DNA of 64,000 nucleotides from Gammaproteobacteria bacterium (GTDB taxonomy: Bacteria > Pseudomonadota > Gammaproteobacteria > Pseudomonadales > Pseudohongiellaceae), in NCBI GenBank assembly GCA_029244985.1, contig JAQWQD010000010.1, forward strand, positions 155,828 to 219,827, read 5' to 3'. The notes under the pieces were generated by a model that ran no database searches, was not told where the DNA came from, and saw only the letters and a list, made by a program, of their open reading frames with translations. The first letter of the stretch is position 1, and each line of letters opens with the position of its first letter. A program made the translations under genes and the position numbers. Of the stretch, positions 2,917-18,482 are shown piece by piece.

Positions 2917-4395
2917 CTAATCAACTAGCTTAATCCATGTACCTTCCTCTGGAGACCCTGTCGGATAATAGCCATTAAGAAGACGAAGTGTTTCTTCGGG
3001 AAAATTGGGGATTTTGCTAGATTGAGCTACTACAGAAAAATCAAAAAACTCGCTTGCCTGCACGTACTTGATTTTCAACTCACTACCAGCGACAACTTCT
3101 CCTTGCTGTATTGATCGGAAAGATCTAATTGCGGCCAAAAGCATTTCGTCGGTTGCCTCAGACTCAGCACCTTCACCAATTTCGCCGCGAAATGTAAACG
3201 CTCTAGGCCCTAAGTAAATAGTCGCCACTCGCTCCATTTTTCCAGTATCCGGGTTTACTGCCACACCAGTATGACCTAACAATCGAAATTGAGAGAGAAG
3301 CTCAGATTTTTGCAAATTTTCAATGCCCATGTTGTCTCTAATAAAAACACGTGGTTCGATATTTTCCTGCAAACGTTGGGCTTCAATTTTCAAGCTTCCA
3401 ACATTGCCTCCGTTAGCAGTCACCGTTGTAGTCGTCTCTATAACATTCCAGCCATCGGGGAGCACCAGTGTGTAACCTAATAAATCCTGATAATAGCGAT
3501 TGCGCTGATCGGTTCGTTGGGAGGCATTGCTCTGTCCAACGATAAGCCCATCGAGCTCTTCTCTAAAAGCATCATTGTCGGTTTTTGCTACGCCAGTTCC
3601 TTCTAACTGGCCAACTTCAGAGATAGCCTCCTGAAGCCGTCGATCATTCCGTGGGTGTGTTGCAAACAAACCGTGATAACTTCCGCCACCACCAGTAACA
3701 CGCCGGTTAAAGTCTTCCTGATTTTTAAGAACAGTGATAACTTCAATCATTGCTGCAGGATCGTATCCTGCATTCACTAAATATTCCGCTGCTAAACTAT
3801 CAGCCTCTAACTCTTGCTCTCGGCCAAAACCGCTAAGCCCCGTTTGTGCCCAGATAGAGGCGACCTCGCTGATTTGTGAAGCCGCATAGCCGCTACCTGT
3901 TGCTATACCGGCGACCAGCCCACCTGCGACTGCGGCTCCGCGAGCGAGCGCGCCTCTAGCCTGCTGCTGAACTGCATGCCGTGCAGTAATATGGGCGATT
4001 TCGTGGGCAAGTACTGCTGCTAGGTCGGCTTCTGAGTTCATGTAAGTTAACAAGCCGCGATTCACATAAACATAACCTCCGGGTAATGCGAACGCATTAA
4101 TTTCTGGGCTATCTATTACATGGAAATGATATTCAAGATTGGGGCGATGACTAACCATAGCCATCTTATTACCAATTTTTTTTACATAGGCAACGAGTTG
4201 TTCATCTTCAAAAAGCGACATGGAGCTCATTACTTTTTCGTGTTCTTCTAAGCCTATTTCCTTTTCTCGATTTTCTGTCATCAATACTAAGTTGGCTCCA
4301 CCAGTAGCCGGATTGACAGCACAGCCAACAAGAAAAAGTAACAATAATACCGATACGATTAGCGCGACGGAAAAACTATAGTTTATTTTAGTCAT
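2917..4395 (-). CDS. M48-family zinc metalloprotease, lipoprotein, with a roughly 200-aa C-terminal extension of unknown fold
   Basis: Lipobox LLFLVGC near the N-terminus. HEXXH motif LAHEIAHITARH preceded by INAFALPGGYVYVNRGLL, which is typical of M48 peptidases. Last gene of the same-strand block. Confidence 0.8.
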   Translation of the reverse strand: MTKINYSFSVALIVSVLLLLFLVGCAVNPATGGANLVLMTENREKEIGLEEHEKVMSSMSLFEDEQLVAYVKKIGNKMAMVSHRPNLEYHFHVIDSPEINAFALPGGYVYVNRGLLTYMNSEADLAAVLAHEIAHITARHAVQQQARGALARGAAVAGGLVAGIATGSGYAASQISEVASIWAQTGLSGFGREQELEADSLAAEYLVNAGYDPAAMIEVITVLKNQEDFNRRVTGGGGSYHGLFATHPRNDRRLQEAISEVGQLEGTGVAKTDNDAFREELDGLIVGQSNASQRTDQRNRYYQDLLGYTLVLPDGWNVIETTTTVTANGGNVGSLKIEAQRLQENIEPRVFIRDNMGIENLQKSELLSQFRLLGHTGVAVNPDTGKMERVATIYLGPRAFTFRGEIGEGAESEATDEMLLAAIRSFRSIQQGEVVAGSELKIKYVQASEFFDFSVVAQSSKIPNFPEETLRLLNGYYPTGSPEEGTWIKLVD

Positions 4396-4470: not shown

Positions 4471-5190
4471 CTAACTACCATTTACAAAATCTTTGAGTTG
4501 AATTGCTAAACGGCTACACGCATTTGCTTCAACCCGGGCTAGCAGTGGAATTGGTATTACAAGTGCCGGCAGATAGGATTGTCCAGTAGCATCAGCATTT
4601 ATTGTTCCGACATTTTTCAGAGAATCGACATCCCATACGCGCGCATTGAAATTAGCATCGTCTTCCCAAGTGCCAAACCCAAAGCATCCGCCACCGGCCG
4701 GACCAACAGTGCAAGAAATTGAACCGGTACGGCCAGAGGTTTCTGTAAAACCATCAACCCATACGATGTAACGAATTCCGTAGTCATTCATTTTGTTTGC
4801 GACTACATCTTCAGCCATGAGCTGCTCTAAATCACGTGTTCTTAGTGGTGCCGTACGAGGTTCGAACCAAGGAAACATCGAATCGATAAATTCCTGCTCA
4901 GGAACTACGCTTATCGCATTCTCACCGCGTTGCATGCGATCACCAACACACTCAACAAATCCAGAATCAGTTTCGTAATCGCTAGCCTGCCTACGCCCTA
5001 AAATTACAACAGATTCGTCAGTTTCAATTCCGGTTTCACCTTGGCGAAATTCATCCACTGTAGTGCTGGTGCACGCAGCAAGCAGACTCGCAATAAAAAA
5101 TGTTGCACCGACATTTACAATTTGCGTTTTTTTTATAGTGCTCATATTGATGCCTTCTCGAGTACCCCGATCTAGAGGTTTCTTAGCCAT
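4471..5190 (-). CDS. Hypothetical lipoprotein
   Basis: Signal/lipobox ATFFIASLLAAC. No recognisable domain. An alternative start at M16 (nt 5145, GAAGG about 9 nt upstream) would remove the 19-nt overlap with the upstream gene. Confidence 0.6.
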   Translation of the reverse strand: MAKKPLDRGTREGINMSTIKKTQIVNVGATFFIASLLAACTSTTVDEFRQGETGIETDESVVILGRRQASDYETDSGFVECVGDRMQRGENAISVVPEQEFIDSMFPWFEPRTAPLRTRDLEQLMAEDVVANKMNDYGIRYIVWVDGFTETSGRTGSISCTVGPAGGGCFGFGTWEDDANFNARVWDVDSLKNVGTINADATGQSYLPALVIPIPLLARVEANACSRLAIQLKDFVNGS

Positions 5191-5798
5191 TCACTTACTT
5201 CCGGCACTTGAGAAAAGCTCAATGAGAAACTAGAAGCGAGATCTCGTAATGCCACAACGGTAGCTCCATTAATCCCGTCCTGTACTGAGCGAAAAGTTGC
5301 CGTCGGTGTCTTCCCATAGGATGTTAAGACCCAATCCGCAATATAGTCACCTTCGGTTGTAACTAAGCGCATGTTGTATTTTATCCAGACTTCATACACA
5401 TCAAGCTTGGTCTTTGCTGGCAGTGCTAATTGAAATTCCTCAATTACGGGAGCAAACACTGCGTCAACTTTTTGTTCGACGGCGTCTTCCATAGTATCCA
5501 CGTTAACGACCCGATCAAACATCGCGGGAAGCACAGCGTCGAACAATCGAATATGAGATTGGCCGCTCTCTATATTTATTTCTTCGCGCCCGGTTTCGCT
5601 GTACTCCATATATGCGAATTCACGCAGAGCGTCTTCATAAATAACCGCTACGGACATCGGCATTTTGTTTACGTTCGGAGTAGGGAAATTGCCTTCTATG
5701 ACAACATTGCTAGCGCCACAAGCGGAAACTAGCAGGAGTAGTAACGCAGTGCCAAACCTGTATAGGAGAGCTTGTATTGTCATGTTCGGCTGATTCAT
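5172..5798 (-). CDS. Hypothetical lipoprotein
   Basis: Lipobox LLLLLVSAC. I place the start at the ATG at 5798 (MNQPNMTIQ...) because AAGGAA lies 6 nt upstream of it. The ORF-track start at 5849 adds a basic, non-signal-like 17-aa extension. Confidence 0.6.
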   Translation of the reverse strand: MNQPNMTIQALLYRFGTALLLLLVSACGASNVVIEGNFPTPNVNKMPMSVAVIYEDALREFAYMEYSETGREEINIESGQSHIRLFDAVLPAMFDRVVNVDTMEDAVEQKVDAVFAPVIEEFQLALPAKTKLDVYEVWIKYNMRLVTTEGDYIADWVLTSYGKTPTATFRSVQDGINGATVVALRDLASSFSLSFSQVPEVSEWLRNL

Positions 5799-5845
5799 CG
5801 CCATTTCCTTAAAATTCTTATACCGTGTAATTCTAATACGCCAAA

Positions 5846-6856
5846 TCACTGATAATCGTTCAACCCTACAAATGTACCACCATTTCGCTGCGTCATCTCC
5901 CGCATTAGAGTGGAATATCGGTAAACACTTTGCTGAAATCGTCTAGGGCCCGCGAAAATGACAGGAAAACCTATCCCATGAATTCTTACCAGGCGATCAC
6001 CATTCTCATCCTCAACATTAATGCGATCAATGGTTTGAAGAACATTTTGGATCGATCCGCCTGGCTGAAAATCATCCCCGAGCACATAAATACTTATGTT
6101 TTTATCATATTCATAAAACGTGTCTATGGCCCGTGTCACACCTTCTACAGGGCTGCTGTTGCTGTAGGGGTTCCAAGACCTTAAAGTCTGAATAATCTGA
6201 CTGCGTCTACCTGGAGTATCCGGGATCCAGTCTCCGCGGTAAGATTCGAACATGTAGTCACCCATGTCATTCATTACCTGGATTCCTTTTACTTCAGGAT
6301 ATACATCCAAGGTATCTCTAATGACACCAAGCATTTTGTCCCAACTTGGGTTTTGAAACATGCTGCCAGAGGTATCGATTACAAAAATAATGTACTCGCT
6401 GTCGACAGGAACACCGCCAATAGCATTGTTCTCGGGGGCTCGCGTGTTGGCAAGCAAACGTTGCATTTCTTCAGTGAGAGATTGTTGCGCCAGAACCAGG
6501 CGGCCAAATTCATCCGTGGTTTCATCTGACAACTCTTTAGTTGTACTGAATTGACCCTCAATGTCATTCAAGTCACGGCGCAACCTGGCAATACGATCCT
6601 CCATTGCAGAGAGTTGCTCATGCTTGGCATTTAGCTCACGGTTTAAGATCGTAGTTTCTCCCCTAATCTCAAACAGTTGCTCCTGCAGTTCAGCAACCAC
6701 GCCCGCTGGCGTAATGTTTTCTACATATTCCAAGGTAGTTGGTGCCGAAGACTTGGTGATCATTAACAGAATAATCATCGCTCCAAACCCACAGGATGCA
6801 ACATCTAGGAATGAGACTGTAAAGGAATCGGTTTCTCTGTTCTTACGATTTGCCAT
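5846..6856 (-). CDS. ExbD/TolR-like TM anchor + coiled coil + periplasmic vWA (MIDAS) domain protein (paralog 2)
   Basis: N-terminal FTVSFLDVASCGFGAMIILLMI resembles the ExbD/TolR TM helix with its conserved Asp. A heptad-rich segment covers about aa 55-135. The vWA motif IIFVIDTSGSM (DxSxS) is present, with a GGTF near the C-terminus. Confidence 0.7.
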   Translation of the reverse strand: MANRKNRETDSFTVSFLDVASCGFGAMIILLMITKSSAPTTLEYVENITPAGVVAELQEQLFEIRGETTILNRELNAKHEQLSAMEDRIARLRRDLNDIEGQFSTTKELSDETTDEFGRLVLAQQSLTEEMQRLLANTRAPENNAIGGVPVDSEYIIFVIDTSGSMFQNPSWDKMLGVIRDTLDVYPEVKGIQVMNDMGDYMFESYRGDWIPDTPGRRSQIIQTLRSWNPYSNSSPVEGVTRAIDTFYEYDKNISIYVLGDDFQPGGSIQNVLQTIDRINVEDENGDRLVRIHGIGFPVIFAGPRRFQQSVYRYSTLMREMTQRNGGTFVGLNDYQ

Positions 6857-6936
6857 ATTTATTTTTTAACGCAATCGTTGAGTCAATTTACAAACATTAT
6901 TCAGCCCATTTCTGCCAGTACTTATAGTCCTTCCAG

Positions 6937-8040
6937 CTAAGGCCAATCTTTCGAAGGCGTTAAAAAAGAGCCTTTCGTATATTGCGCCAACTGCCAGTAA
7001 ATAGCTGCAGCACTTGGGTCCCCTTCCAATGGCATCAATATGACATTGACCGGAATTGACTGAGGTAATTCTTCAACTGCTTCCTCAAATAATTCCGCCC
7101 GGTCTGCGGGTGTTATCAGAGAACCTCTGGCACCCCGGTCATCAAGGGTAGGTAAGCCGTCGGTAATTAGGAAAATATTATCTGGCCTAGGTGACATATT
7201 TGCTACTGCCCGAAATACCTGGGCCATATTTGTGCCACTGTCCGGCACTATGCCTTTTACGTTATCAATTACCTGATTAAGTTGGTCTCGATCCGCGACC
7301 TCTAACCACCTATCTTCTGTACCAGGCAGCACGGCTTTGTATTCAGTGTTGAAATTCCACATTTGATATTGGCTGGTGATGGGTAACTGGGTACTCACCC
7401 AGTCCACAGTATTGACAACTCGTTGCCATTTTGGCGCATTGCGCTTGCGCTCGTCATCCATATTGCGTGTGCGAATGATATTTACGATAGTGCTATCCAG
7501 CATACTGGCCGAGCTGTCTATGAGCACAAGAATTCTTTGGCCGCCGAGAAATAAGCCAGAGAGATACTGACGATTCCCATCCCCTAGAAATTGACGAACA
7601 CTATTGCCTTCCTGTTCGAAGGCGCTTGCCTGCAATCGCAATAACTCATTTTCCAGAGTCTCTATATCTGAACGAAGTTGAGCCACGTCTTCGACGCTGG
7701 CCATACTGTTGTTTTCAAGTGCAGCGAGTTCCTGCAAGAACGTGTCTATTTGCTCCAAGATCTGGCGCGCAAGACCCTCCGCCGCGACTACCTCAAAATC
7801 GACATCAGAAAGAATATTGCGAACCCGAACCAAACCAAGCTGACCTTCCTGAATTTCTTCTTCCAACAAATTTATTTCTGCAGTCAGGTCTGGGCTGGTT
7901 GCTTCTGGAGAGACGGAGCTAGCATGATCCAAGATTAGAAAAATAAGAATCACAGCGCCAAAGCCACAAAACATGACGTCAAGAAAGGCTAAGCTTAATG
8001 GATTAACTTTGCGTCTGTTTGATTTACTATTACTAGCCAT
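6937..8040 (-). CDS. ExbD/TolR-like TM anchor + coiled coil + periplasmic vWA (MIDAS) domain protein (paralog 1)
   Basis: N-terminal NPLSLAFLDVMFCGFGAVILIFLIL (compare ExbD TPFIDVMLVLLIIFMV). A coiled-coil region follows. vWA motifs are ILVLIDSSASM (DxSxS) and IFLITDGLPT. The start overlaps the upstream stop by 8 nt. Confidence 0.7.
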   Translation of the reverse strand: MASNSKSNRRKVNPLSLAFLDVMFCGFGAVILIFLILDHASSVSPEATSPDLTAEINLLEEEIQEGQLGLVRVRNILSDVDFEVVAAEGLARQILEQIDTFLQELAALENNSMASVEDVAQLRSDIETLENELLRLQASAFEQEGNSVRQFLGDGNRQYLSGLFLGGQRILVLIDSSASMLDSTIVNIIRTRNMDDERKRNAPKWQRVVNTVDWVSTQLPITSQYQMWNFNTEYKAVLPGTEDRWLEVADRDQLNQVIDNVKGIVPDSGTNMAQVFRAVANMSPRPDNIFLITDGLPTLDDRGARGSLITPADRAELFEEAVEELPQSIPVNVILMPLEGDPSAAAIYWQLAQYTKGSFLTPSKDWP

Positions 8041-9391
8041 CGTTAACCTGAATCAGATTTATTTCGTCACCATTGCTTTCGAATTGGATACAGTCACCCA
8101 GCTTCAGTAATTGCTCTCCTGTTACTAGATTATCGTTCAAAAATACTTTCTGCACCAAACTATTGAGGTAAACACCCTCCTCGCGCAGCTCAATTCGACC
8201 CAGAGACTCTGGCAAATTTTCTATGTCCATGACTAGCGTATTTATGTCCAGCGACTTTCCATTCAGTACTGGCTTGTTCTTAATTTCAAGCTTATCAATT
8301 GCAATAGCGCGATTAGCATAAAGTACATGAGTCGGGTTATCGCCTCTGTCGCTATTTATGTTTTCATTTTGCTTAGTCGGTTTAATTCTATCTAATTTTG
8401 CTATCGGCAATCTGCTAACGAGATGAATGCCTCCCTTCGCAGTAACGATGTGAGCTTTGTTCTGATGACAAGCTTCGTTAACTAAATGATTTTTAACTAC
8501 AACGAAATTTTCCGTAGTATCGGTAGACGCTAAAAAGCCAGGAAGGTCTGCGATGGCTTGACTGAATAAGATATCAACATTGCTGCTATCAACTAATGAA
8601 TTAATCTGTTCATTGATTTTTTTGTAATATTCATTGAGATTCCTTATCAGGCTTTCTCTCGGAAGTTTAGCAGTATGTATGGCGCTTTCGCTTTTAAGCT
8701 CCAGCAAGAGTGTTTTTTCTTTCTCGTCCTGCAATAACCACGAAGGTAACTCATTATAGAGCTGTTGCTCAGATTCAGCGTTATGTTGAGGGTTAAAACG
8801 ACACTGCTGAATAAACATGTCCGTTGCAATTTGCATCATTAAATTCATAAAGTTCTGACTGCCAACTCCAGGGATCTGAATAACACCATCGGTCCTGAGA
8901 TGCTCATCAACAAGTGTCAGTTTCGAAAGTACTACCTGATGCAATTGGATATCAGCATAGACAATTTGTTCTCTTTCGGAGGATACCAGTGCTGCTGCTA
9001 ACGCAGAATCAACAACACCAATCGGCGTAAAAGGACACTGTTGTGCAAGGCCTAATAGAATGGCTAACTGTGGTCGAGTAAAGTTACCTGGCACTGCAAA
9101 AATAACGTCTGCATCAATCTCGCCGGCATCGGCCAGGTGCATTAATTGAGCATATGCCAGATCAGCATAGTGTCTAACTTTTTTGCTGTGGGAAATGGGC
9201 TCTAGACTCAGATCGCACCAATACTTGCTAAAGCTGTGGGTTGGTCGCAATCGTGCTTGTCGTTCCGCAGATTCCCCCACCTCGAGTTTGTCATCTGCTG
9301 CCAATGCAAATCCGGGGCTCTCTAAGATGACGCCACTCTCATCACCGACCTTAATCTCACGGTCATTTAGCTCTATTACTTTTAATGACAT
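8033..9391 (-). CDS. Cytoplasmic Hsp70/actin-fold protein with degenerate nucleotide-binding motifs and an FHA-like C-terminal domain (tentative)
   Basis: VIFAVPGNFTRPQLAILLGLAQQCPFTPIGVVDSALAAAL aligns with Hsp70 [33 protein letters not shown]. The phosphate-1 DLGTTNS position reads ELNDREI and the DLGGGTFD position reads DIQLHQVV. The C-terminal LGRIEL....LNDNLVTGEQLLKLGDCIQF resembles an FHA core. No signal peptide or TM segment. Confidence 0.6.
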   Translation of the reverse strand: MSLKVIELNDREIKVGDESGVILESPGFALAADDKLEVGESAERQARLRPTHSFSKYWCDLSLEPISHSKKVRHYADLAYAQLMHLADAGEIDADVIFAVPGNFTRPQLAILLGLAQQCPFTPIGVVDSALAAALVSSEREQIVYADIQLHQVVLSKLTLVDEHLRTDGVIQIPGVGSQNFMNLMMQIATDMFIQQCRFNPQHNAESEQQLYNELPSWLLQDEKEKTLLLELKSESAIHTAKLPRESLIRNLNEYYKKINEQINSLVDSSNVDILFSQAIADLPGFLASTDTTENFVVVKNHLVNEACHQNKAHIVTAKGGIHLVSRLPIAKLDRIKPTKQNENINSDRGDNPTHVLYANRAIAIDKLEIKNKPVLNGKSLDINTLVMDIENLPESLGRIELREEGVYLNSLVQKVFLNDNLVTGEQLLKLGDCIQFESNGDEINLIQVNDG

Positions 9392-9409
9392 GTATTACTT
9401 GCAACCATT

Positions 9410-10222
9410 TTAGCTATTCGCCTTTTCTGGAACTTGCATGTGGCGAATCAATCGTTCATCACAATAGTTTTGACAGTCGAGCACCAATCTATCCTGCTGC
9501 AATTGCAATTGATGCAGAAGAAACATTAAGAAAATACTCACAACCAGAGCTACGAATGTGGAATTAAAGGCAACTCCTAAGCTTTGGGTAACTCCCGCAA
9601 TATCCCCCGCGACGGCCTGATAAGCTTGCCCCAAAGCAGTGCCGATGCCTCGAACAGTGCCCAAAAATCCGATTGAAGGAATTGCCCAAGCAATATAGCG
9701 GACAATAGAAAGTTCCGTTTCCATTCGGTCTGCTTCAGTTTCACATGTATCTTTAATGATCGAGGAAACAGCGTGAATGTTTTGTGTGCTTTGAAATCGA
9801 TGTAACCCTGCCAACAAAGCACGCGGTAGCAGAAATTCCTTTTCTTTAGGCCCAAGCGCCTGAACTGGTCTGGCGTAGTTGCGAGAATCCTCTGGCAAGA
9901 TACTCATGCCATCTTGCAGTTTCACCAGCGTCCTTTCGAGTAAAGCTCGTTGTCGCAAGGTGTGTTGAGTCTTCATGCCGATGATAGTAACGGCCCAAAG
10001 AAAGAAAATTATGCAAAACTCTTGTTCATAATCGCGAACAATTATGAATACGGAACGCTCCGGTACTATGTCTGGATTTTGTTCCTGCATTAATTGCTGC
10101 TGTTCTTGGATTAGCTCTGCATTGGGCCTGATCACCGTCACATAAGTGGCATGCACTATGATAATCACGAAAATCAAAGTACCAATTTGGAAGAGCGCTT
10201 CATACAATGAGCCTTGCTTCAT
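9410..10222 (-). CDS. MotA/TolQ/ExbB-family proton channel protein
   Basis: The C-terminal signature VRYIAWAIPSIGFLGTVRGIGTALGQ...IAGVTQSLGVAFNSTFVALVVSIFLMFLLH matches the MotA_ExbB motif (APLLGLLGTV.GMI..F....GIS.AL.TT..GL..AIP). There are also N-terminal TM helices. Confidence 0.8.
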   Translation of the reverse strand: MKQGSLYEALFQIGTLIFVIIIVHATYVTVIRPNAELIQEQQQLMQEQNPDIVPERSVFIIVRDYEQEFCIIFFLWAVTIIGMKTQHTLRQRALLERTLVKLQDGMSILPEDSRNYARPVQALGPKEKEFLLPRALLAGLHRFQSTQNIHAVSSIIKDTCETEADRMETELSIVRYIAWAIPSIGFLGTVRGIGTALGQAYQAVAGDIAGVTQSLGVAFNSTFVALVVSIFLMFLLHQLQLQQDRLVLDCQNYCDERLIRHMQVPEKANS

Positions 10223-10255: not shown

Positions 10256-10564
10256 TTAGATATCAACCGGAAATGAAACACCCAAGTCCTGGGATATTTG
10301 CTCAGTTGGAATGAAACGAGAGTTTGAGTTTTCTACTTCGCTTTCCTCGCCTCCTTCGTCTGCCCCCAGGATCAATTCATCATTGTCAGCGACGCCCAAT
10401 TCTTCGAGGGTTAATTCTGTATCAATAATCTGCTGTTCAGTTTGAGCTTCCTGTTCCGTGTCAGCGGATTGACTGTCCTGAGCCCCCGCACTTAAGGAAA
10501 GCAGTCCAGCAAATAGCAGAATTGTTTTTTTCACGTAATAGCTCTCTTTAGCTGGTGTACTCAT
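10256..10564 (-). CDS. Small secreted, highly acidic protein
   Basis: Signal peptide KKTILLFAGLLSLSAGAQD, then about 70 aa rich in D/E/Q. It sits 3 nt downstream of the preceding stop and 33 nt upstream of the MotA/ExbB gene. Confidence 0.55.
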   Translation of the reverse strand: MSTPAKESYYVKKTILLFAGLLSLSAGAQDSQSADTEQEAQTEQQIIDTELTLEELGVADNDELILGADEGGEESEVENSNSRFIPTEQISQDLGVSFPVDI

Positions 10565-10567
10565 AGG

Positions 10568-12661
10568 TCACTCCAAATAGCGCGCTACTCGGAAACCTAC
10601 ATCATCGCGCGGCTCTTCCCCAAAATCTCGAAAAGACAACCGCATTTCCGTGACTGCACCGTGCGCCCAGCTGGATCCACGAATAGTATGAAACTGTCCC
10701 AACTCTGGCCCAAGAGGATCAACTTCAATGCCTATCGAACCAACTGCACCATAAAAGTCATGCACCCACTCCGATACGTTTCCTGCCATATCAAAAATTG
10801 CGTACTGATTTGGAGTGAATGATCCAACTGGTGCTGAGGCAAAATAATTGTCATTGTAGTTAAACATGATTTCGCCTAAATAGTTTTGGGCTGTAATATC
10901 GGCAAAGTTACCAGCATTTTCTGGAGGCGGAAGCTCATCACCCCAAGAATATTTTAGTTGATTACCACTGCCATCAGTTCGAGCCGTCCATGCCCATTCT
11001 GCTTCAGTAGGCAGCCTATAACCGGTTGTGTTGGAGTTAAATCCAACTACATCTTCTCCTTCTATTTCATAAAAGAGCGGCAGGCTTTCCTGTTCACTAA
11101 GCCAATTACAATAGCGGGCTGCCTGGGACCAACTGATTTGCACAGCTGGTTGTTCTTCATTATTCAAAGTAACACCTGAGACAGTACCGGACGAATGCTC
11201 TGGATCAAACTGACGATACTCCGTATTTCTTACTTCATGGAAACTAATATAAAAAGGACGATCTAGCTCTATATCACGCAAGTTCTCGTTGGGGCGACGC
11301 CCAGCTTCTCGGCGCGAAGCCCCCATGGTAAATGCGCCAGGATAAAAAAGCTTTAGTTGTTGCCCCGTTGCAGTAGTAATCACCGGTTGAATTTGGTCCA
11401 GTCGGGCCTGCTCTAAAGATTTCAGAGTAACCCTAATCGCCTGATCTAAACCTGGCCTAGAGGTAAACTCGCTAGCGTAAGGCACGAAGCCTTCTTTACG
11501 AATTTCGATCTTTTGACTAGCCGCCATTAACGCAACAGTTTGATTGGCCAAGCCTCTAAATTCGCCGTTAACGTAAAGTTCTGCATCTTCGGGATGGGCA
11601 ATCACACTAACATTGGTCAACTCTGGATCTAGATCAATGCTTAGTTCTCTTTCCTGGTTTGGTTCGGTACGAATTGAAGTTCTACTGGATCGATAACCAT
11701 TCTTCAAAAATGTCAGATCATGATTTTGGCCAGGAGGCAAGGCAACCTCCAACGGAGTGAGGCCCTTGTATTCTCCACCGATGGTTACAGCCGCTGCAGA
11801 AGGGTTGCTGCGGATAAATACCAATCCATCCGCCGGCTCCAGTTCAACCTGAGGTACCGTGAAGTCTTCGCCGGCGATGATATCAAAATCTTCCTGCCAG
11901 GCTTTATGGCCTGCTAGCTTGAGAGTAAGGTCCCGACGACCCTGAATGATCTCGGAATTAACCGGGGTAGTCCCAATCACAACACCATCTAGAAAGACAT
12001 CTGCTCCAGGCGGGGACGTTGACAAACTAACCACTGCCCAGGCCGGTTCCAGACTGGACTGATAACGTTGCTCGACTTCTCTTCCTTCGATATCAATGGT
12101 TTCGCCATAATCAAGATATCGGTCCATAGAAATGGTCATCTGATGCTGTCCAGGCTCAATAGAAATGTCGACTAAAGGAGTAACCCCAATATCTACACCA
12201 TCAATTTGTACTCGGGCACCATTTAATTCCATAGTCGCAATTGAAACAATGCCCGGAAGTCTTCGCATTTCAAAGGGAACAGTTTGTGACTGCTCATTAG
12301 TAACTAAGAGTTGAGTATTTGTTTCATGATAGCCTTCGTTGGTGAGTTTTATTTCGTAGGACCCAGTCCTGATAAGGTACCTTTGCCCTAAACGAACTCT
12401 CAACCCGCCACTAATTTCTATTTGCGCAGTTATTGGATTAACTTCCACAAATACAGATCTCGCAGTTAGAACAAACCAGCCGGCAATGCCTGATAACAAA
12501 ACAAATACACCAACGACAAAGTGTACTGGCTTGGGTTTAAATGTGACTCGCGGCCCTTTTTCATCATGAGGCGTAAAGTCAATCGGAATTATAGGGCTGG
12601 CTGGCCCGATATTCTCACTAATTTCGATGTCGTCCACTTTCGCATCACCTATTTGTGGCAA
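10568..12661 (-). CDS. Single-pass membrane protein with about 5 PEGA repeats and a C-terminal FGE-sulfatase (SUMF1/EgtB/PvdO-fold) domain
   Basis: TM helix VHFVVGVFVLLSGIAGWFVLTA. PEGA-like units include PPGADVFLDGVVIGTTPV, PSAAAVTIGGEYKGLTPLEV and PEDAELYVNGEFRGLANQ. FGE-fold motifs are GAFTMGAS, ISWSQAARYCNWLS, YRLPTEAEWAWTAR, GNVSEWVHD and IRGSSW...VGFRVARY. Confidence 0.8.
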   Translation of the reverse strand: MPQIGDAKVDDIEISENIGPASPIIPIDFTPHDEKGPRVTFKPKPVHFVVGVFVLLSGIAGWFVLTARSVFVEVNPITAQIEISGGLRVRLGQRYLIRTGSYEIKLTNEGYHETNTQLLVTNEQSQTVPFEMRRLPGIVSIATMELNGARVQIDGVDIGVTPLVDISIEPGQHQMTISMDRYLDYGETIDIEGREVEQRYQSSLEPAWAVVSLSTSPPGADVFLDGVVIGTTPVNSEIIQGRRDLTLKLAGHKAWQEDFDIIAGEDFTVPQVELEPADGLVFIRSNPSAAAVTIGGEYKGLTPLEVALPPGQNHDLTFLKNGYRSSRTSIRTEPNQERELSIDLDPELTNVSVIAHPEDAELYVNGEFRGLANQTVALMAASQKIEIRKEGFVPYASEFTSRPGLDQAIRVTLKSLEQARLDQIQPVITTATGQQLKLFYPGAFTMGASRREAGRRPNENLRDIELDRPFYISFHEVRNTEYRQFDPEHSSGTVSGVTLNNEEQPAVQISWSQAARYCNWLSEQESLPLFYEIEGEDVVGFNSNTTGYRLPTEAEWAWTARTDGSGNQLKYSWGDELPPPENAGNFADITAQNYLGEIMFNYNDNYFASAPVGSFTPNQYAIFDMAGNVSEWVHDFYGAVGSIGIEVDPLGPELGQFHTIRGSSWAHGAVTEMRLSFRDFGEEPRDDVGFRVARYLE

Positions 12662-14177
12662 CTACACGTTCAACACATTGAACAAGAACTGAATCTGGCG
12701 TTTGGTTAAACCCAACTACAAATTCTTCACGAACTTCTCTATAGCCTATACGTTTTCCTACAGCAACGTATCTGCCCGGCTTTAAAGATACAATGGTTTG
12801 TTCAAACAATCCTAGATTTCCGATTCTCAAAATAGTCACATCTGTCAGGTTGTCAGAAACCATTTGTATATCAAGAGGCACCTGCGAAGTCTCTAATAAT
12901 AGCTGCAACTTCTGGAGTTGATCGGATATTCGAGCACCAGGATTTTCGATTGCTCTCCCTGTGTAGTAAACGTCTAAGGTTTGTTGGAAAACATCTTGCT
13001 CGTAGAATCTATCAGGAGTTTCGATAGCACTAACCAACAGATCATCGAGTTGCGCCCGCTTACTGGCATAATCACGGCCGTTAATCGCAAACACGAGGTT
13101 TGCGTCTATTACCAAAGCATTGTCATACTCAACCACTGCCGTATGCCATTGCTCTTGGCTTTCAGCTTCTGTGATTCTTAATTGGATTACTGAAATTTCT
13201 ACATTCGCTATTTCATTTTCAGTTTGTGTTATTGCTGCACGTGCTTGTTCTTGATTGATTCCCAAACTCGCGGCTCGCTCAAATTCTGCAATGGCTTGAT
13301 CCGGGTTATCGCTTTCCAAAAAAGCATAGCCTGATGACATTATGAAAGAAAACTCCCGCTGCAAAATTAAACCTGCAACTTCAGAAATTCTCTGTTGAGC
13401 ATCCTGATTATAACTATCTAAGCTGACTATTTGTCGATAAATAACTTGCGCCGCTTCTAATTCATCATCCTCTAGCAGGCTATCTGCCTCCGCTAATAGT
13501 CCAGATACTTCGTCTAGCGCGCGCGCCCTTTCTAAGCCAATTTGCGCAACCTCACTGTCGGGGTCTAAGAGAAGCGCTAGTAAAAACTTGTTTTGAGCCA
13601 CAAACGAGTCTCGTGCATCAAGGGCGCTCTGAGCATCTACCAAGTTTTGATTCAGCACCACGGGAACCATAGCTTGTATCTCAACTAAATCGTCTCGCCC
13701 TTGGGTATAAGATTCAGTTGCTAATTGAAAATCTTGAGTTCGGTAATATTCATCTCCAATACTCGCAACTTCCAACGCGGCGATATATTCTTCCTGTGCC
13801 CATTGCTCTACGTCGAGAAGCTCCAGAATTTCTTGCTGGGTTAAGAGTTCTGCCAGGACGTCTTGTGCTTCTTTCCTTTGTCGCGAACGTTGTGCCTCTT
13901 CGAAAGGAGAAATCATTGACACCGTCTCTGCCGGCAATGGCTGCAACTCCGTGACATCAACTCTGAGCTCTAAGGGTAATTCATATTCAGTGACGAGAGC
14001 TGGCAATACGAAAATAACAAGCAGGGCAGCAAGCAGTAAACCTGCCACACTAACCCAAATCCAAATAGGGGGACTTTTAGACTCTAACGCGGCAGAGGAA
14101 TTGACATAAATCTGGTTCTCAGTAAATCCAGATTGCTGCGACTCTTGCTTGTTCTTTTCGACATCTTTCTCTGACAT
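12645..14177 (-). CDS. Single-pass membrane protein with a long helical/TPR-like periplasmic region and a PEGA-like C-terminal module
   Basis: TM helix IWIWVSVAGLLLAALLVIFVLPAL. Acidic helical repeats follow (DQAIAEFERAASLGINQEQA and similar). The C-terminus reads LKPGRYVAVGKRIGYREVREEFVV. The stop overlaps the next gene's start by 17 nt. Confidence 0.55.
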   Translation of the reverse strand: MSEKDVEKNKQESQQSGFTENQIYVNSSAALESKSPPIWIWVSVAGLLLAALLVIFVLPALVTEYELPLELRVDVTELQPLPAETVSMISPFEEAQRSRQRKEAQDVLAELLTQQEILELLDVEQWAQEEYIAALEVASIGDEYYRTQDFQLATESYTQGRDDLVEIQAMVPVVLNQNLVDAQSALDARDSFVAQNKFLLALLLDPDSEVAQIGLERARALDEVSGLLAEADSLLEDDELEAAQVIYRQIVSLDSYNQDAQQRISEVAGLILQREFSFIMSSGYAFLESDNPDQAIAEFERAASLGINQEQARAAITQTENEIANVEISVIQLRITEAESQEQWHTAVVEYDNALVIDANLVFAINGRDYASKRAQLDDLLVSAIETPDRFYEQDVFQQTLDVYYTGRAIENPGARISDQLQKLQLLLETSQVPLDIQMVSDNLTDVTILRIGNLGLFEQTIVSLKPGRYVAVGKRIGYREVREEFVVGFNQTPDSVLVQCVERVVATNR

Positions 14178-14219
14178 ATCTATTTCTGAAGATGGAACAG
14201 ACCAGTTATTGACGTCTGC

Positions 14220-15404
14220 TTACAGTTGTCCTACTTCCGCCGCATAAAGATCTGCCAAGATTTCACGCCATTGCTCATACTGCTCTTCCACTGACCCGGT
14301 GAGAGTAATTGTACGGTCGTCTAAGTTTATAACTTGAGGTGCCACTTCATTTTCAAGAGACTGGCCGAGTTCTTCAAGCGCTTCCATATGAATTCTTGCT
14401 TCGGCTCGTTTATCGAATCCACTTCTAATCAAATAAGCGCCAGCTCCGACTCCAAACGCCCCGCCAGCTTGTGTTGCATAGTTACTGCCTTGAGTTGCGG
14501 CAGCCAAGCCACCAACAACAGCGACAGCACCAGCAATAAATCGACGCTTAGCAGAGGCCTCTAATTCTCGTAGTGTTATTGTTTCGTGATAACTCTGTTC
14601 ACGCCATGAATCATAAGGCAAACGCATCTGCCGAACATATGTTGCGTAATAATCTTGAACCGTATCAATGAACATAAAATCTCGTTCACGAATATCTCGA
14701 ATTCTTTCGAGCACTGGGTCAGAATCCGCAGGCAACGAGTTAATCTGATAAATCCCATTACGACTGGTTGTTAAGTAGGGATCAAATACATCTGGAGAGA
14801 AACGTCGCGCAAACAATATTTCAGAAATTGTTCGAATCTCAACTACCTCTTCGTCAGTAATATTATTTTTTTTCCAGGCCAATAAATCATTGGCTATATT
14901 GTTGTACAAAATCTGAAAAGGGTCGCTCTGCTGACGCTGAGATGGGTCGTAACTGAACTGGCTAATTTCTTGATCATAAACTTTGGTGTACCAATTTTTG
15001 CCCGTTGAATCTGCAACGTGCACTCGCATGCTCATTGATTCGCCATTCGATTCCAGAATAGTGCCCGTAATGTAAACATCCATTGGACTGGAGTGATTAG
15101 GCATTAAGCGGACGATGCCCCAATTTGCAGAGCGCTGCAGCGTCTCTGCTAATAGATAAGGGGCATAACGTGATTCCGCAACTCTGACCTGATGATTGGT
15201 AAGTTCTTCCTGATCACCATCCAACTCATCCAGCCCCGGATCAAACATTGCCACACCAACATCCAACAGCAAGTCCTCGGGCACGCCCTGGCTGTCTCGA
15301 ACAACCGGTGTGTAAGAAGTTGTTTTGACAGTATGCGTTGCACAGGCGCTTAAAAAAACAGCGGCCGCTAACAAGCCAATTGCATTTTTAGCAAGGAATC
15401 TCAT
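14220..15404 (-). CDS. Hypothetical lipoprotein with a glycine-zipper segment near the C-terminus
   Basis: Lipobox AAAVFLSAC. Gly/Ala zipper FIAGAVAVVGGLAAATQGSNYATQAGGAFGVGAGAYLI. ATGA start/stop overlap with the upstream gene at 15401-15404. Confidence 0.6.
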   Translation of the reverse strand: MRFLAKNAIGLLAAAVFLSACATHTVKTTSYTPVVRDSQGVPEDLLLDVGVAMFDPGLDELDGDQEELTNHQVRVAESRYAPYLLAETLQRSANWGIVRLMPNHSSPMDVYITGTILESNGESMSMRVHVADSTGKNWYTKVYDQEISQFSYDPSQRQQSDPFQILYNNIANDLLAWKKNNITDEEVVEIRTISEILFARRFSPDVFDPYLTTSRNGIYQINSLPADSDPVLERIRDIRERDFMFIDTVQDYYATYVRQMRLPYDSWREQSYHETITLRELEASAKRRFIAGAVAVVGGLAAATQGSNYATQAGGAFGVGAGAYLIRSGFDKRAEARIHMEALEELGQSLENEVAPQVINLDDRTITLTGSVEEQYEQWREILADLYAAEVGQL

Positions 15405-16534
15405 TGCTCTTCACCTTCACTAATACCTGTATAGTTTCTGTACTCATCCCAAAGCGCCTCACGCAATTCCAGGTCAGGCTCACTCATTGCAGCCTCTCTT
15501 AGCTGTCGAGCAACCACATCATCATCTCTCCCACTGGGAATATCTTCCGGTGGTGGAAAAGTTTCAGTCGGTGGCGGTGGAGAGGAAGATGAAGAAGGGC
15601 GCGATGCAGCAACGCCCGAGGGGGCTCCAGCTTCAGCTTCAGGGAGTGTTTGTGGTTGCGTAGAAGTATTACCGCCGCCGGCATCTCCTCCCGGCTGCGC
15701 GCTGCCTGCAGCATTACTTTCATTCTGAGCTTGTTCTCTTTCACTGAGAATGAAGCCATCAAAGGTTTCATAGCCTCGACGTAGTCTTTCGTCCAATACT
15801 TTTGCTCTTTCAACAGAGGTCATTGGTCCAGTGTTTTGAGTTTGCATGGAGCTATTTCCACTTAAAACACTATTTGGCAGCGTATCTAAGCTATAATCCC
15901 CACTGGGGCTCTCTAAAAGCCCTCCACCTGAACCAGAGTTCCCACCTTGACCTGAATTTAGATCTCCAGTAGAAATGTCGCCACTGGCATTGCCAGAGCC
16001 GGAGGTTGGAGCGCTTCTCCGACCTTGCTGTCCTGCCGGATTACCTTGCCCCTGTTGACTTTGCTGTGCTGATTGCTGCCCCCCACCAGATGCCTGACTT
16101 CCAGAATCGCTAGAAGGCACAGAGCTATCACGCGCACCTTGATCCCTAGATTGACTATTCGCCGAACCTCGCCCACTTGTTTGTGGAAAATTCGATGAAG
16201 TCTGCGGCATCGGATTATCCCTATTGGCTTGGGCTTGAGAGCTGCTCTGGGCTCCCTGCGAACGCTGGGAAGAGCTACCGGAGGGCGACGGGTTCGATTG
16301 AGAGCGGCTACTACTGCTCGAAGATGGCATTGACGGCGATGATTGTGACCTCGACCTCGAACTGCTTGATGATGGCATCGATTGCGAGCTTGGTGAGCTC
16401 GGGCTCGAAGAAGAGGGCATAGATGGCATACTCGCAGAGGATGAGCTCTGACTCGAGCTTTGACATGCCAGAAAGCTTAAGCTGATTACGCTTAGCAAAA
16501 CTATCTTAGGCATTATCATATTAAACTTTTTCAT
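15401..16534 (-). CDS. Ser/Gln/Gly-rich, predicted disordered lipoprotein
   Basis: Lipobox ISLSFLAC, then about 200 aa of low complexity (SASMPSMPSSSSPSSPSSQSMPSSSSSRSRSQSSPSMPSSSSSS...). The more ordinary C-terminal third carries VERAKVLDERLRRGYETFDGFIL and a PPPPTETFPPPEDIP stretch. The frame is supported by ATGA coupling to the next gene. Confidence 0.6.
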   Translation of the reverse strand: MKKFNMIMPKIVLLSVISLSFLACQSSSQSSSSASMPSMPSSSSPSSPSSQSMPSSSSSRSRSQSSPSMPSSSSSSRSQSNPSPSGSSSQRSQGAQSSSQAQANRDNPMPQTSSNFPQTSGRGSANSQSRDQGARDSSVPSSDSGSQASGGGQQSAQQSQQGQGNPAGQQGRRSAPTSGSGNASGDISTGDLNSGQGGNSGSGGGLLESPSGDYSLDTLPNSVLSGNSSMQTQNTGPMTSVERAKVLDERLRRGYETFDGFILSEREQAQNESNAAGSAQPGGDAGGGNTSTQPQTLPEAEAGAPSGVAASRPSSSSSPPPPTETFPPPEDIPSGRDDDVVARQLREAAMSEPDLELREALWDEYRNYTGISEGEEQ

Positions 16535-17096: not shown

Positions 17097-18482
17097 TTAG
17101 TACCAATACCTGTAGCGAAACGCCTGTCCATTAGTACGTTCCAGCTTTCCTTCGACTAGCATAGGTCGAAACGTCGAAGCCCGGACTTCACGGCGTAATT
17201 GGGAAAGCCTATATGCGTTTTCTTCTGTTTCTTCAGATAGAACTTCTATGTTTCTGGGTCTACCGGCCTCAGTAACATCAAGAGAAATATCCGCGTAAGC
17301 GTGACTTAAAGTATTCCGACTCTTCGCATCGCCAGCGCTCATCTTCAAATTGCGAGGATCTTCTGCAAAGGTCGGCAGCAACACTACCTGGCCAAATAGT
17401 TTCTTAATTAGCTCGTCGCCATTTTCTTCAGAAGCTAATAATTCCCATGCCTGCAGATAAAAGTCATCTGCCGTTCGGCGCCGATTAAACATCAAGAACC
17501 AGTCCGCTAAGTGAGTAATCGCTTCAGCCATCGCGTAGACATTATAAGGCTTTGTGGATTGGTAACTTACGATATTTTGCAAGGCAACTACACCGATATT
17601 ATAGCCCTGTGGCAAGATGGACTTGCGCTCATTTAATTGTTGTCGCAATACTTCCTGGCCGTTTCTATATTCGGGACGATCAATTTCCATTGTGTATTGG
17701 GGATAACGCGAGACCTGATACGCAGAGATAGCAAGATTTCGAAGGTAACGGGTGAAGCGCTCATCGTCCCTGCCAAAATGCATCTCTACCATGCGGACAG
17801 CGGTGCTATAGAGCATTTGGGCACTGCTTAAGCGCACTCCCAAAGCAGCACCGTAGCCAATATTAAAAGCTCGCATGTTCCATGATGCTAAACGGTCTAG
17901 CACTGGAATAATGCGAGGATCATTTGTTCCGTAAGCCTTCTGTTGCACAAAAAATAAATAATTGTTGTAGAGATCTGTGTTTTCCCAGTCTCCAAGCGCC
18001 AAATAGCTCTCGACCATTTCCTCAACCATTGGAATTTGATCAAGCGTGTGAAGACCGTTAGAAATGCGATTGATATGAACCGCACGATCAAATGCTTCGA
18101 TCGCCCCTATATGATTTCCTTGTTGCTGTTCGAGACCCCCAATGGAGGCAAGCTGCTCGGTTAAACCGCTGTCCCAAGCACCCCCAAACCCTTCCAAAGA
18201 ATCCACGTTTTCCGAGTATTCGCGAATACTATTCATTCGGTCGATAAAATCAGGATCATCTTCTGGGTCGAACTCTTCAACTTTTAGCGGTAACTCTGGG
18301 AATTGAGGTTCTATACCTGGCTGGATAGGGACTGGAACTTCGATGTAGTGTATGGTCGCCGGCGCTGGCTCTTCTGCAGGCAAAGAGGCAGCATCTTCTC
18401 CCTGGCTATAGAGCTCTTGAGCGCTGATGCTTACAAGCACAGCACAGAGGCGAAGGCTTAATTTGAATGAAATACTGCGCAT
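17097..18482 (-). CDS. Secreted protein: Pro/acidic N-terminal stretch, helical repeat middle, TonB-C-like C-terminal domain (tentative)
   Basis: Signal peptide MRSISFKLSLRLCAVLVSISAQ. Then PAEEPAPATIHYIEVPVPIQPGIEPQFPELP. The C-terminus YADISLDVTEAGRPRNIEVLSE....ASTFRPMLVEGKLERTNGQAFRYRY resembles the TonB_C pattern (G.V.v.f.V...G...n..V..S........A......wrF.P....G.pv). Confidence 0.55.
   Translation of the reverse strand: MRSISFKLSLRLCAVLVSISAQELYSQGEDAASLPAEEPAPATIHYIEVPVPIQPGIEPQFPELPLKVEEFDPEDDPDFIDRMNSIREYSENVDSLEGFGGAWDSGLTEQLASIGGLEQQQGNHIGAIEAFDRAVHINRISNGLHTLDQIPMVEEMVESYLALGDWENTDLYNNYLFFVQQKAYGTNDPRIIPVLDRLASWNMRAFNIGYGAALGVRLSSAQMLYSTAVRMVEMHFGRDDERFTRYLRNLAISAYQVSRYPQYTMEIDRPEYRNGQEVLRQQLNERKSILPQGYNIGVVALQNIVSYQSTKPYNVYAMAEAITHLADWFLMFNRRRTADDFYLQAWELLASEENGDELIKKLFGQVVLLPTFAEDPRNLKMSAGDAKSRNTLSHAYADISLDVTEAGRPRNIEVLSEETEENAYRLSQLRREVRASTFRPMLVEGKLERTNGQAFRYRYWY

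Follow-up and report, generated by a model that had tools for sequence, protein, structure and literature searches.

A candidate 5:2 motor with paired vWA subunits in marine Gammaproteobacteria and Verrucomicrobia

Known 5:2 motors act in the periplasm through MotB-type peptidoglycan anchors, through ExbD or TolR together with TonB or TolA, or through the arms of GldM and PorM. To our knowledge, no MotA, ExbB or TolQ homolog works without a dimeric, single-helix partner that bears an aspartate (as in MotAB, ExbBD, TolQR, GldLM and ZorAB). Here, we describe a gene cluster in a 64,000-nucleotide stretch of a Pseudohongiellaceae genome (GenBank assembly GCA_029244985.1, contig JAQWQD010000010.1, positions 155,828 to 219,827 of the forward strand; "the window"). 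The cluster encodes one MotA-like channel subunit and two paralogs, named vwaA and vwaB here, in which a transmembrane helix is joined to a vWA (von Willebrand factor A) domain.

The closest described system is the "TPH-vWA" pair beside a tolQ-like gene (Williams-Jones et al., Mol Biol Evol 2025, PMC12204202). Such genes are "predominantly found in heterologous pairs" and occur "predominantly throughout Proteobacteria and Verrucomicrobia" (PMC12204202). In AlphaFold 3 (AF3) models, the aspartate pair sits within the threonine ring of a TolQ-like pentamer (PMC12204202). We found no literature on the TPH-vWA design beyond this paper. Every described feature that we could examine recurs in our cluster: transmembrane-tethered vWA domains, heterologous pairs, synteny with a tolQ-like gene, no tolR, exbD or motB, a helix aspartate, a threonine ring and no histidine of the SHLS type. 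The taxonomic range also matches, with Gammaproteobacteria on one side and Opitutae and Puniceicoccaceae on the other. An initial annotation of the window had presented the arrangement as a new output module for this motor family. Since every testable TPH-vWA feature is present, that hypothesis is an independent rediscovery of a published computational prediction; the motor design was in print in 2025. What we add are the partners: a protein resembling the Hsp70 nucleotide-binding domain (NBD) with an FHA-related domain, a PEGA/FGE-sulfatase protein, lipoproteins, an M48 peptidase and, in other lineages, kinases. Neither the Hsp70-like/FHA gene nor the PEGA/FGE-sulfatase protein is mentioned in the text of PMC12204202, and the M48 peptidase and the kinases are likewise absent from it.

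Architecture and conservation of the vWA pair

The core genes and their parts, including the metal ion-dependent adhesion site (MIDAS) of each vWA domain, are as follows (aa, amino acids).

9410-10222 (-): MotA/ExbB/TolQ-like channel subunit, 270 aa, Pfam PF01618, proposed pentamer
8033-9391 (-): p452, cytoplasmic protein of 452 aa; Hsp70-NBD-like fold (aa 1-330) and C-terminal beta-rich domain (aa 355-447)
6937-8040 (-): vwaA, 367 aa, starting MASNSKSNRRKVNPLSLAFLDVMFCGFGAVILIFLIL
7918-8001 (-): vwaA transmembrane helix, aa 14-41, after a basic N-terminal tail
7978-7980 (-): vwaA codon of D21
7615-7905 (-): vwaA helical, heptad-periodic stalk, aa 46-142, with a linker next
6940-7545 (-): vwaA vWA domain, aa 166-367
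7504-7518, 7231-7233 and 7159-7161 (-): vwaA MIDAS residues D175/S177/S179, T270 and D294, respectively
5846-6856 (-): vwaB, 336 aa, paralog of vwaA, starting MANRKNRETDSFTVSFLDVASCGFGAMIILLMI
6755-6823 (-): vwaB transmembrane helix, aa 12-34
6803-6805 (-): vwaB codon of D18
6437-6739 (-): vwaB heptad-periodic region, aa 40-140
5849-6409 (-): vwaB vWA domain, aa 150-336
6362-6376, 6155-6157 and 6074-6076 (-): vwaB MIDAS residues D161/S163/S165, S234 and D261, respectively

Codons of D21, D18 and the MIDAS residues, and the domain boundaries, were verified against the nucleotide sequence. The two open reading frames (ORFs), their N-termini and their MIDAS strings were found where the initial annotation had placed them. 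Briefly, LIDSSASM occupies aa 173-180 of VwaA, in which ITDG contains D294, and VIDTSGSM occupies aa 159-166 of VwaB. In the ORF list of the window, the genes belong to a co-directional minus-strand run from ~16534 down to 2917. Stop and start codons overlap at 8033/8040, 5846/5849, 5172/5190, 12645/12661 and 15401/15404. Hence, from these overlaps and from the synteny described below, we infer an operon. A scan of the sequence for promoters and terminators returned sites no more often than in shuffled sequence.

vwaA and vwaB are the sole members of their families in the window. Their products share 18% identity (BLASTP, E 8e-7). When the two families were compared using hhalign, the alignment covered 318 columns comprising the transmembrane helix, the helical region and the vWA domain (probability 99.9%, E 2e-31). 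The proposed paralogy is thereby borne out. Because identity is low and the family alignments nevertheless match across helix, stalk and vWA domain, the two are old paralogs.

The predicted architecture, a transmembrane helix followed by about 100 heptad-rich residues and a vWA domain, also holds. Pfam VWA_2 matched VwaA at the gathering threshold (E 7e-6) and VwaB marginally (E 0.057). We obtained a single-chain AlphaFold 2 (AF2) model of VwaA using 45 diverse homologs as input. Its mean predicted local distance difference test score (pLDDT) is 85.6, exceeding 95 in the globular part (aa 166-367). Helices span aa 14-41, 50-110 and 116-141, and aa 142-165 form a low-confidence linker. According to Foldseek, aa 166-367 resemble solved vWA domains of ITIH1, Bacteroides BatB, PilB pilin, the LapA vWFA and CMG2 (E 6e-6 to 1e-3). 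Heptad periodicity exceeds that of shuffled sequences in both stalks (z 4.4 for VwaA, 3.1 for VwaB), and a stalk profile produced weak matches in the PDB, to coiled-coil proteins only. Both paralogs have the vWA fold and a complete set of metal-site residues (DxSxS, T/S and D).

Lysine and arginine residues number 3.4-3.6 in the N-terminal tails and 1.1-1.7 in the 15 residues past the helix, in both families. By the positive-inside rule the N-terminus is inside and, therefore, the vWA heads should be periplasmic, as had been proposed. In both paralogs, the cytoplasmic tail's final charged residue lies ~8-10 residues ahead of the membrane aspartate. No histidine occurs inside the hydrophobic helix (VwaA, aa 12-37; VwaB, aa 1-40), so that the SHLS motif of TonB and TolA is lacking.

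Conservation was assessed after an exhaustive search of representatives at 50% identity, which gave 1290 relatives (E<=1e-3). Among 105 full-length representatives, 28-57% identical, D21 is retained in 94/94 non-gap sequences. The MIDAS is also intact and conserved: D175 in 99/105, S177 in 105/105, S179 in 100/105, T270 in 90/104 and D294 in 105/105. For VwaB we used 78 sequences from related genomes. D18, D161, S163, S165, S234 and D261 are each present in 78/78. Both paralogs share the helix motif F-[LM]-D-x-x-x-C-G-F-G-A, preceded by a basic cluster. Judged from these alignments, the motif is conserved far beyond what a plain membrane anchor would show.

To define synteny, one genome per GTDB species was scanned. 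At least 593 genomes encode a relative. Locus counts below refer to the best 80 loci among the matches listed, and smaller denominators to those loci whose contig reaches far enough. One locus, from a Pseudomonadales metagenome-assembled genome, is 99% identical to the window. The 80 loci belong to Pseudohongiellaceae, Halieaceae, Microbulbiferaceae, Cellvibrionaceae and their relatives, cultured strains included. Gene order is fixed: serine-rich lipoprotein, lipoprotein, bitopic protein resembling tetratricopeptide repeat (TPR) proteins, PEGA/FGE-sulfatase protein, small acidic protein, MotA-like subunit, the 452-aa protein, vwaA, vwaB, two lipoproteins and the M48 peptidase. Both paralogs are found in 80/80 loci; in the loci with sufficient contig, the MotA-like gene is present in 73/73 and vwaB in 76/76. 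Thousands of relatives, many of them marine, occur among metagenomic proteins. The components are annotated only as "hypothetical" or "VWA domain-containing".

More distant representatives occur in Opitutae, Puniceicoccaceae (Verrucomicrobia) and Steroidobacteraceae. Here, a core of a MotA_ExbB protein, a protein of 475-512 aa, vwaA and vwaB, in this order, recurs at locus L081 (Puniceicoccaceae) and in the metagenomic lineages L082-L084. It is usually accompanied upstream by a PEGA/FGE-sulfatase gene and, at short distance, by an M48 gene. In L081, vwaA (E 1e-62) and vwaB (E 1e-36) each have an ortholog of their own, the A to B comparison giving E 7e-11. The motif F[LM]DCICCGFGAV and the membrane aspartate are retained in both paralogs of L081-L084. 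Since orthologs of A and B are separate and the motif is kept at such distance, the duplication is ancient and both copies were retained. This is what one would expect if A and B formed an obligate heterodimer that occupies the centre of a 5:2 complex.

A candidate axle for the MotA-like subunit

The product of 9410-10222 matches Pfam MotA_ExbB (PF01618) with E 9e-17 and 61.4 bits, the cutoff being 22.9. It scores far under the NCBIfam equivalog cutoffs for TolQ, ExbB and MotA and, for this reason, represents a distinct subfamily. We identified pore threonines T189 (codon 9656-9658) and T222 (codon 9557-9559). In a phmmer alignment with the E. coli TolQ chains of 8odt, these correspond to T145 and T178 of TolQ. 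Both are kept in 77/77 family members and at the four distant loci.

A conventional partner is absent. 9410-10222 is the sole MotA-like gene in the window. Searching all window ORFs with E. coli ExbD and TolR (phmmer) found no homolog of either. The same search found no match in 79/80 related loci; in the remaining one, the sole hit was an unrelated ORF that lies beyond the cluster, ~9.6 kb downstream of the two vWA genes. Loci L081-L084 carry no Pfam ExbD annotation. Because MotA-type subunits are not known to work without an aspartate-bearing partner, and the cluster offers no other candidate, we propose VwaA and VwaB, which carry such a helix, as the axle. The parts, their conservation and linkage, and the missing conventional partner together make it probable that the helices of VwaA and VwaB are surrounded by five MotA-like subunits, forming a proton-driven 5:2 motor with a heterodimeric vWA axle.

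Such a motor might work as follows. The VwaA-VwaB heterodimer would replace the usual ExbD, TolR or MotB dimer, with five MotA-like subunits around its two aspartate-bearing helices. Protons flowing via the aspartate and threonine sites would cause relative rotation, and the two vWA heads would be held in the periplasm at the end of the coiled-coil stalk. There, the MIDAS metal would bind an acidic residue of a partner and force would be transmitted or resisted. Candidate MIDAS partners are the PEGA/FGE-sulfatase protein, the acidic 102-aa protein and the lipoproteins. On the cytoplasmic face of the motor, p452 would dock and have a regulatory role; it might be controlled by phospho-threonine in those lineages whose Ser/Thr kinase genes are adjacent. 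The motor might serve in remodelling or sensing the envelope, or in adhesion or surface transport.

Several observations weigh against a 5:2 motor of this kind. First, kinship of the helix with ExbD, TolR or MotB was not detected. Pfam ExbD (PF02472) did not match the N-terminal 60-62 aa at E<=10, nor the whole of VwaA or VwaB at E<=0.1. An N-terminal profile of 33 sequences retrieved no ExbD, TolR or MotB from all PDB chains at E<=10. Comparison by hhalign with E. coli ExbD, TolR and MotB gave probabilities below 2%, and below 1% for ExbD and TolR. The helix is ~25 residues long, so all of these tests have low statistical power. The sole PDB match of the N-terminal profile, NDUFB4 (E 0.6), was judged to be chance. 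An hhalign comparison with the ExbD-like ORF of L049 also lent no support for homology; only MotB aligned with its aspartate in register, and not significantly. Second, the 452-aa gene at 8033-9391 separates the channel gene from the vWA pair. Third, the published support for such a complex is an AF3 prediction only. Fourth, the vWA heads could be the moving output or a fixed anchor. Finally, the TPH-vWA reference is from Idiomarina loihiensis, and the likeness drawn here is one of described features; Idiomarina names were absent from two sequence-cluster look-ups.

Two statements of the initial annotation need revision as a result. It described the helices as closely mimicking ExbD and TolR, and no profile-level match was found by any of the three routes. 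VwaA and VwaB are not members of the ExbD/TolR family; the likeness is one of mechanism and topology. Hence, the case for an axle rests on context and conservation, not on helix homology. The annotation also placed the two subunits next to one MotA/ExbB gene. There is a single MotA-type gene, and it is kept with the pair as far as Verrucomicrobia, but the genes are not adjacent: the conserved Hsp70-like/FHA gene between them had been overlooked.

The same 5:2 assembly could operate the other way round. The vWA heads would then be a fixed anchor, like the peptidoglycan-binding domain of MotB, with the MIDAS as a latch on the envelope, and the rotating pentamer would work on p452. In every lineage examined, a cytoplasmic protein is indeed encoded between the MotA-like and axle genes. 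Furthermore, the loop at residues 85-175 of the MotA-like protein holds many invariant charged residues, and the FliG-contacting loop of MotA is likewise charged. PEGA domains, present in a conserved companion, are described as peptidoglycan-associating (PMC7159879), which we also count for an anchor. Conversely, nothing shows contact between p452 and the motor, and most partner genes encode exported or envelope proteins, as would suit a periplasmic output. We consider a fixed anchor unlikely.

We give a similarly low weight to a role for VwaA and VwaB outside the pore. Here, they would form a bitopic, heterodimeric periplasmic sensor or scaffold (comparable to PilN/PilO with a PilM-like protein, or to the vWA domain of PpkA), lateral to a MotA-like protein acting alone or with an unrecognised partner. 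The gene order, an actin/Hsp70-fold protein followed by two bitopic coiled-coil paralogs and lipoproteins, resembles pilM-N-O-P. Kinase, FHA, vWA and FGE-sulfatase domains co-occur in the distant loci, and PpkA, with its periplasmic vWA sensor domain, signals through an FHA protein (PMC3224232). The lack of profile similarity to ExbD or TolR is also consistent with a sensor. These points are set against a buried aspartate that is invariant across phyla in both helices, invariant pore threonines and the lack of any other axle candidate. Moreover, MotA/ExbB/TolQ homologs are not known to function without a dimeric aspartate-bearing partner.

It is very improbable that the helices are ordinary membrane anchors that look ExbD-like by chance. 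The similarity of the helix is without statistical support, a point in favour of this reading, but FLD...CGFGA is invariant in two families that are otherwise ~18% identical, and plain anchors are not so conserved. Least probable is a Zorya-like or other anti-phage module built on the MotA-like protein, which we rejected after a PADLOC search: a weak ZorA2 match (E 6e-5) covered the generic MotA/ExbB region only, no ZorB, ZorC, ZorD or other defence match was found, all partners are envelope proteins, and the operon is chromosomal, stable and fixed in order across at least 80 species-level genomes of several families, unlike defence islands.

The cytoplasmic protein and the envelope partners

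p452 has no transmembrane segment, no Pfam match and no PDB match by sequence, even when searched as a profile. Its AF2 model (pLDDT 85.6) is informative. Residues 1-330 resemble the NBDs of DnaK, Ssz1 and BiP (Foldseek, E 5e-17 to 3e-14, target TM-score, a template-modelling score, ~0.7). The glycine-rich phosphate loops are not recognisable in the sequence; even so, E7, N9, D10 and K56 show no variation, and D147 shows hardly any. Where the contig extends far enough upstream, the gene is found at 73/73 loci, and syntenic homologs of p452 occur in three distant lineages. Of particular note is the 512-aa protein of L084, with which the p452 family aligns end to end (hhalign, probability 99.5%, E 4.5e-23). 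The C-terminus of the L084 protein is a Pfam FHA domain (E 7e-12). A Pfam search of window p452 at E<=10 returned no FHA, the link being only through the L084 homolog, and window p452 lacks the canonical GR and SxxH residues. On the strength of these alignments, the C-terminal domain of p452 is homologous to FHA and degenerate in the window. Taken together, p452 and the kinases and PEGA/FGE-sulfatase protein described below suggest a motor whose coupling or regulation involves this cytoplasmic Hsp70-fold/FHA protein.

At the p452 position, L081 encodes a 499-aa protein (8474-9973) that starts MKYLGIDLSD and so has an Hsp70-like "GIDLS" start. It had no detectable similarity to the p452 family in hhalign (probability 0.3%). 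This may reflect displacement or extreme divergence.

Ser/Thr kinase genes lie beside the core in L082 (1333-3540) and L084 (834-3410 and 12023-15964), next to the PEGA/FGE-sulfatase gene. At these distant loci, one kinase is a fusion with an FGE-sulfatase domain; L082 further carries an FHA gene that stands alone (13770-14195). The kinases and FHA domains of distant loci hint at phospho-threonine control, apparently lost in the version in the window. Separately, L083 carries a TonB_C-domain gene (13940-14554) ~6 kb downstream of the vWA pair.

The remaining genes of the cluster encode envelope or exported proteins.

15401-16534 (-): putative lipoprotein, 377 aa, with a long Ser/Gln/Gly/Pro low-complexity region; 50/80 loci
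14220-15404 (-): putative lipoprotein, 394 aa; N-terminus ends ...FLSAC, C-terminal glycine-rich hydrophobic segment; 65/80 loci
12645-14177 (-): bitopic protein, 510 aa, transmembrane aa 44-62, weak TPR signals; 68/80 loci, homolog in L081 (E 2e-15)
10568-12661 (-): PEGA/FGE-sulfatase protein, 697 aa; 47-aa cytoplasmic N-terminus, transmembrane aa 48-66, five PEGA domains and an FGE-sulfatase domain (SUMF1/GldK-like)
10256-10564 (-): small acidic product, 102 aa, with an export-signal-like N-terminus, rich in D, E and Q
5172-5849 (-): putative lipoprotein, 225 aa, directly after vwaB with a 4-nucleotide overlap; 75/76 loci with enough downstream sequence
4471-5190 (-): putative lipoprotein, 239 aa; 73/80 loci
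2917-4395 (-): lipoprotein of 492 aa, an M48 metallopeptidase (Pfam Peptidase_M48, E 8e-39), encoded at the cluster's distal end; 67/80 loci

The PEGA/FGE-sulfatase product matches Pfam PEGA (E 1.8e-48) and FGE-sulfatase (E 1.3e-39). Against NCBIfam GldK it scores E 4.7e-28 and 98.6 bits, far below the cutoff of 350. Of the loci that extend far enough upstream, 66/67 carry its gene, and so do L081, L082 and L084. Such retention suggests the FGE-sulfatase protein as a plausible periplasmic partner of the vWA heads, either as ligand or as scaffold. The 102-aa acidic product was detected in 32/80 loci, and L081 has a small gene at the same position. Its gene lies just upstream of that for the MotA-like subunit, and a MIDAS would be expected to bind a partner of acidic nature. 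In L082 (11936-12946) and L083 (12982-13779), too, an M48 gene is found near the core, and retention of this gene suggests proteolytic processing or quality control of a system component.

The serine-rich lipoprotein gene at 15401-16534 is probably the first of the operon. Its stop overlaps the start of the following gene by 4 nucleotides, and the product has a short, acidic, conserved C-terminal region. A sigma-70-like site is found at 16614-16585; such sites are no commoner than chance in the region. Just upstream of the cluster, the product of 17097-18482 (-), 461 aa long, has an N-terminus resembling a signal sequence and shows weak TPR signals.

Our picture of the whole cluster is tentative. 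It may be a ~12-gene envelope machine of marine Gammaproteobacteria and Verrucomicrobia, in which the motor would be combined with cytoplasmic p452 (kinase-controlled in some lineages) and with a periplasmic GldK-like PEGA/FGE-sulfatase protein, lipoproteins and the M48 peptidase. Powered by the proton motive force and phospho-regulated, such a machine could act in surface transport, in adhesion or in sensing of the envelope. Carriers of this abundant system include cultured Microbulbifer, Congregibacter, Kineobactrum and Halioxenophilus (for instance Microbulbifer agarilyticus, Congregibacter variabilis and Halioxenophilus aromaticivorans), which make experiments tractable. The Hsp70-like/FHA partner and the kinases provide a handle on regulation and on the side of the membrane at which work is done.

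Comparison with known motors and vWA systems

Resemblance to other vWA systems is partial. In the H1 type VI secretion system (T6SS) of P. aeruginosa, PpkA has a periplasmic vWA sensor, Fha1 is a cytoplasmic FHA reader and the periplasmic co-receptor TagR binds the kinase at its periplasmic domain (PMC3224232, PMC6082577). Ser/Thr kinases similarly flank the core in L082 and L084. TagR may itself contain a domain of the FGE-sulfatase type. However, our cluster has no T6SS, the operon in the window has no kinase and the FHA domain is degenerate. We treat the shared domain vocabulary as a lead only. The cluster also differs from BatA/BatB systems: no operon protein has a Pfam match to a MoxR AAA+ ATPase or DUF58, and BatB is a generic match to the vWA fold. 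Zorya differs in that ZorA has a long C-terminal tail, whereas the MotA-like protein here has only 270 aa; Zorya further comprises a ZorB with a peptidoglycan-binding domain, and ZorC/D or ZorE.

Among the 5:2 motors, ExbB-ExbD and TolQ-TolR share with our cluster the channel family, the same two pore threonines and a partner with an inside N-terminus, a single helix and an aspartate near its cytoplasmic end. The cluster differs in having no ExbD/TolR periplasmic domain, in a predicted heterodimer of diverged paralogs instead of a homodimer, and in its coiled coil and vWA/MIDAS heads. Unlike Ton and Tol systems, the operon encodes no TonB- or TolA-like transducer. The flagellar stator units MotA-MotB and PomA-PomB likewise pair a 5:2-type channel subunit with an aspartate-bearing single-helix partner. 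In our cluster, a vWA domain stands at the C-terminus in place of an OmpA-like peptidoglycan-binding domain; a plug helix was not identified, and flagellar genes are missing from the operon.

GldL-GldM and PorL-PorM, motors of gliding and type IX secretion, offer a further parallel, a 5:2 dimeric partner whose long periplasmic arm reaches towards outer-membrane-associated partners. A protein of the FGE-sulfatase family, to which GldK, GldJ and PorK belong, is also the conserved companion here. VwaA and VwaB have no sequence relation to GldM or PorM, however, and the FGE-sulfatase protein in our cluster is anchored in the inner membrane and carries PEGA repeats. If the proposed 5:2 assembly is correct, the vWA pair would be a fourth kind of periplasmic output for these motors, a two-subunit axle ending in metal-dependent protein-binding heads.

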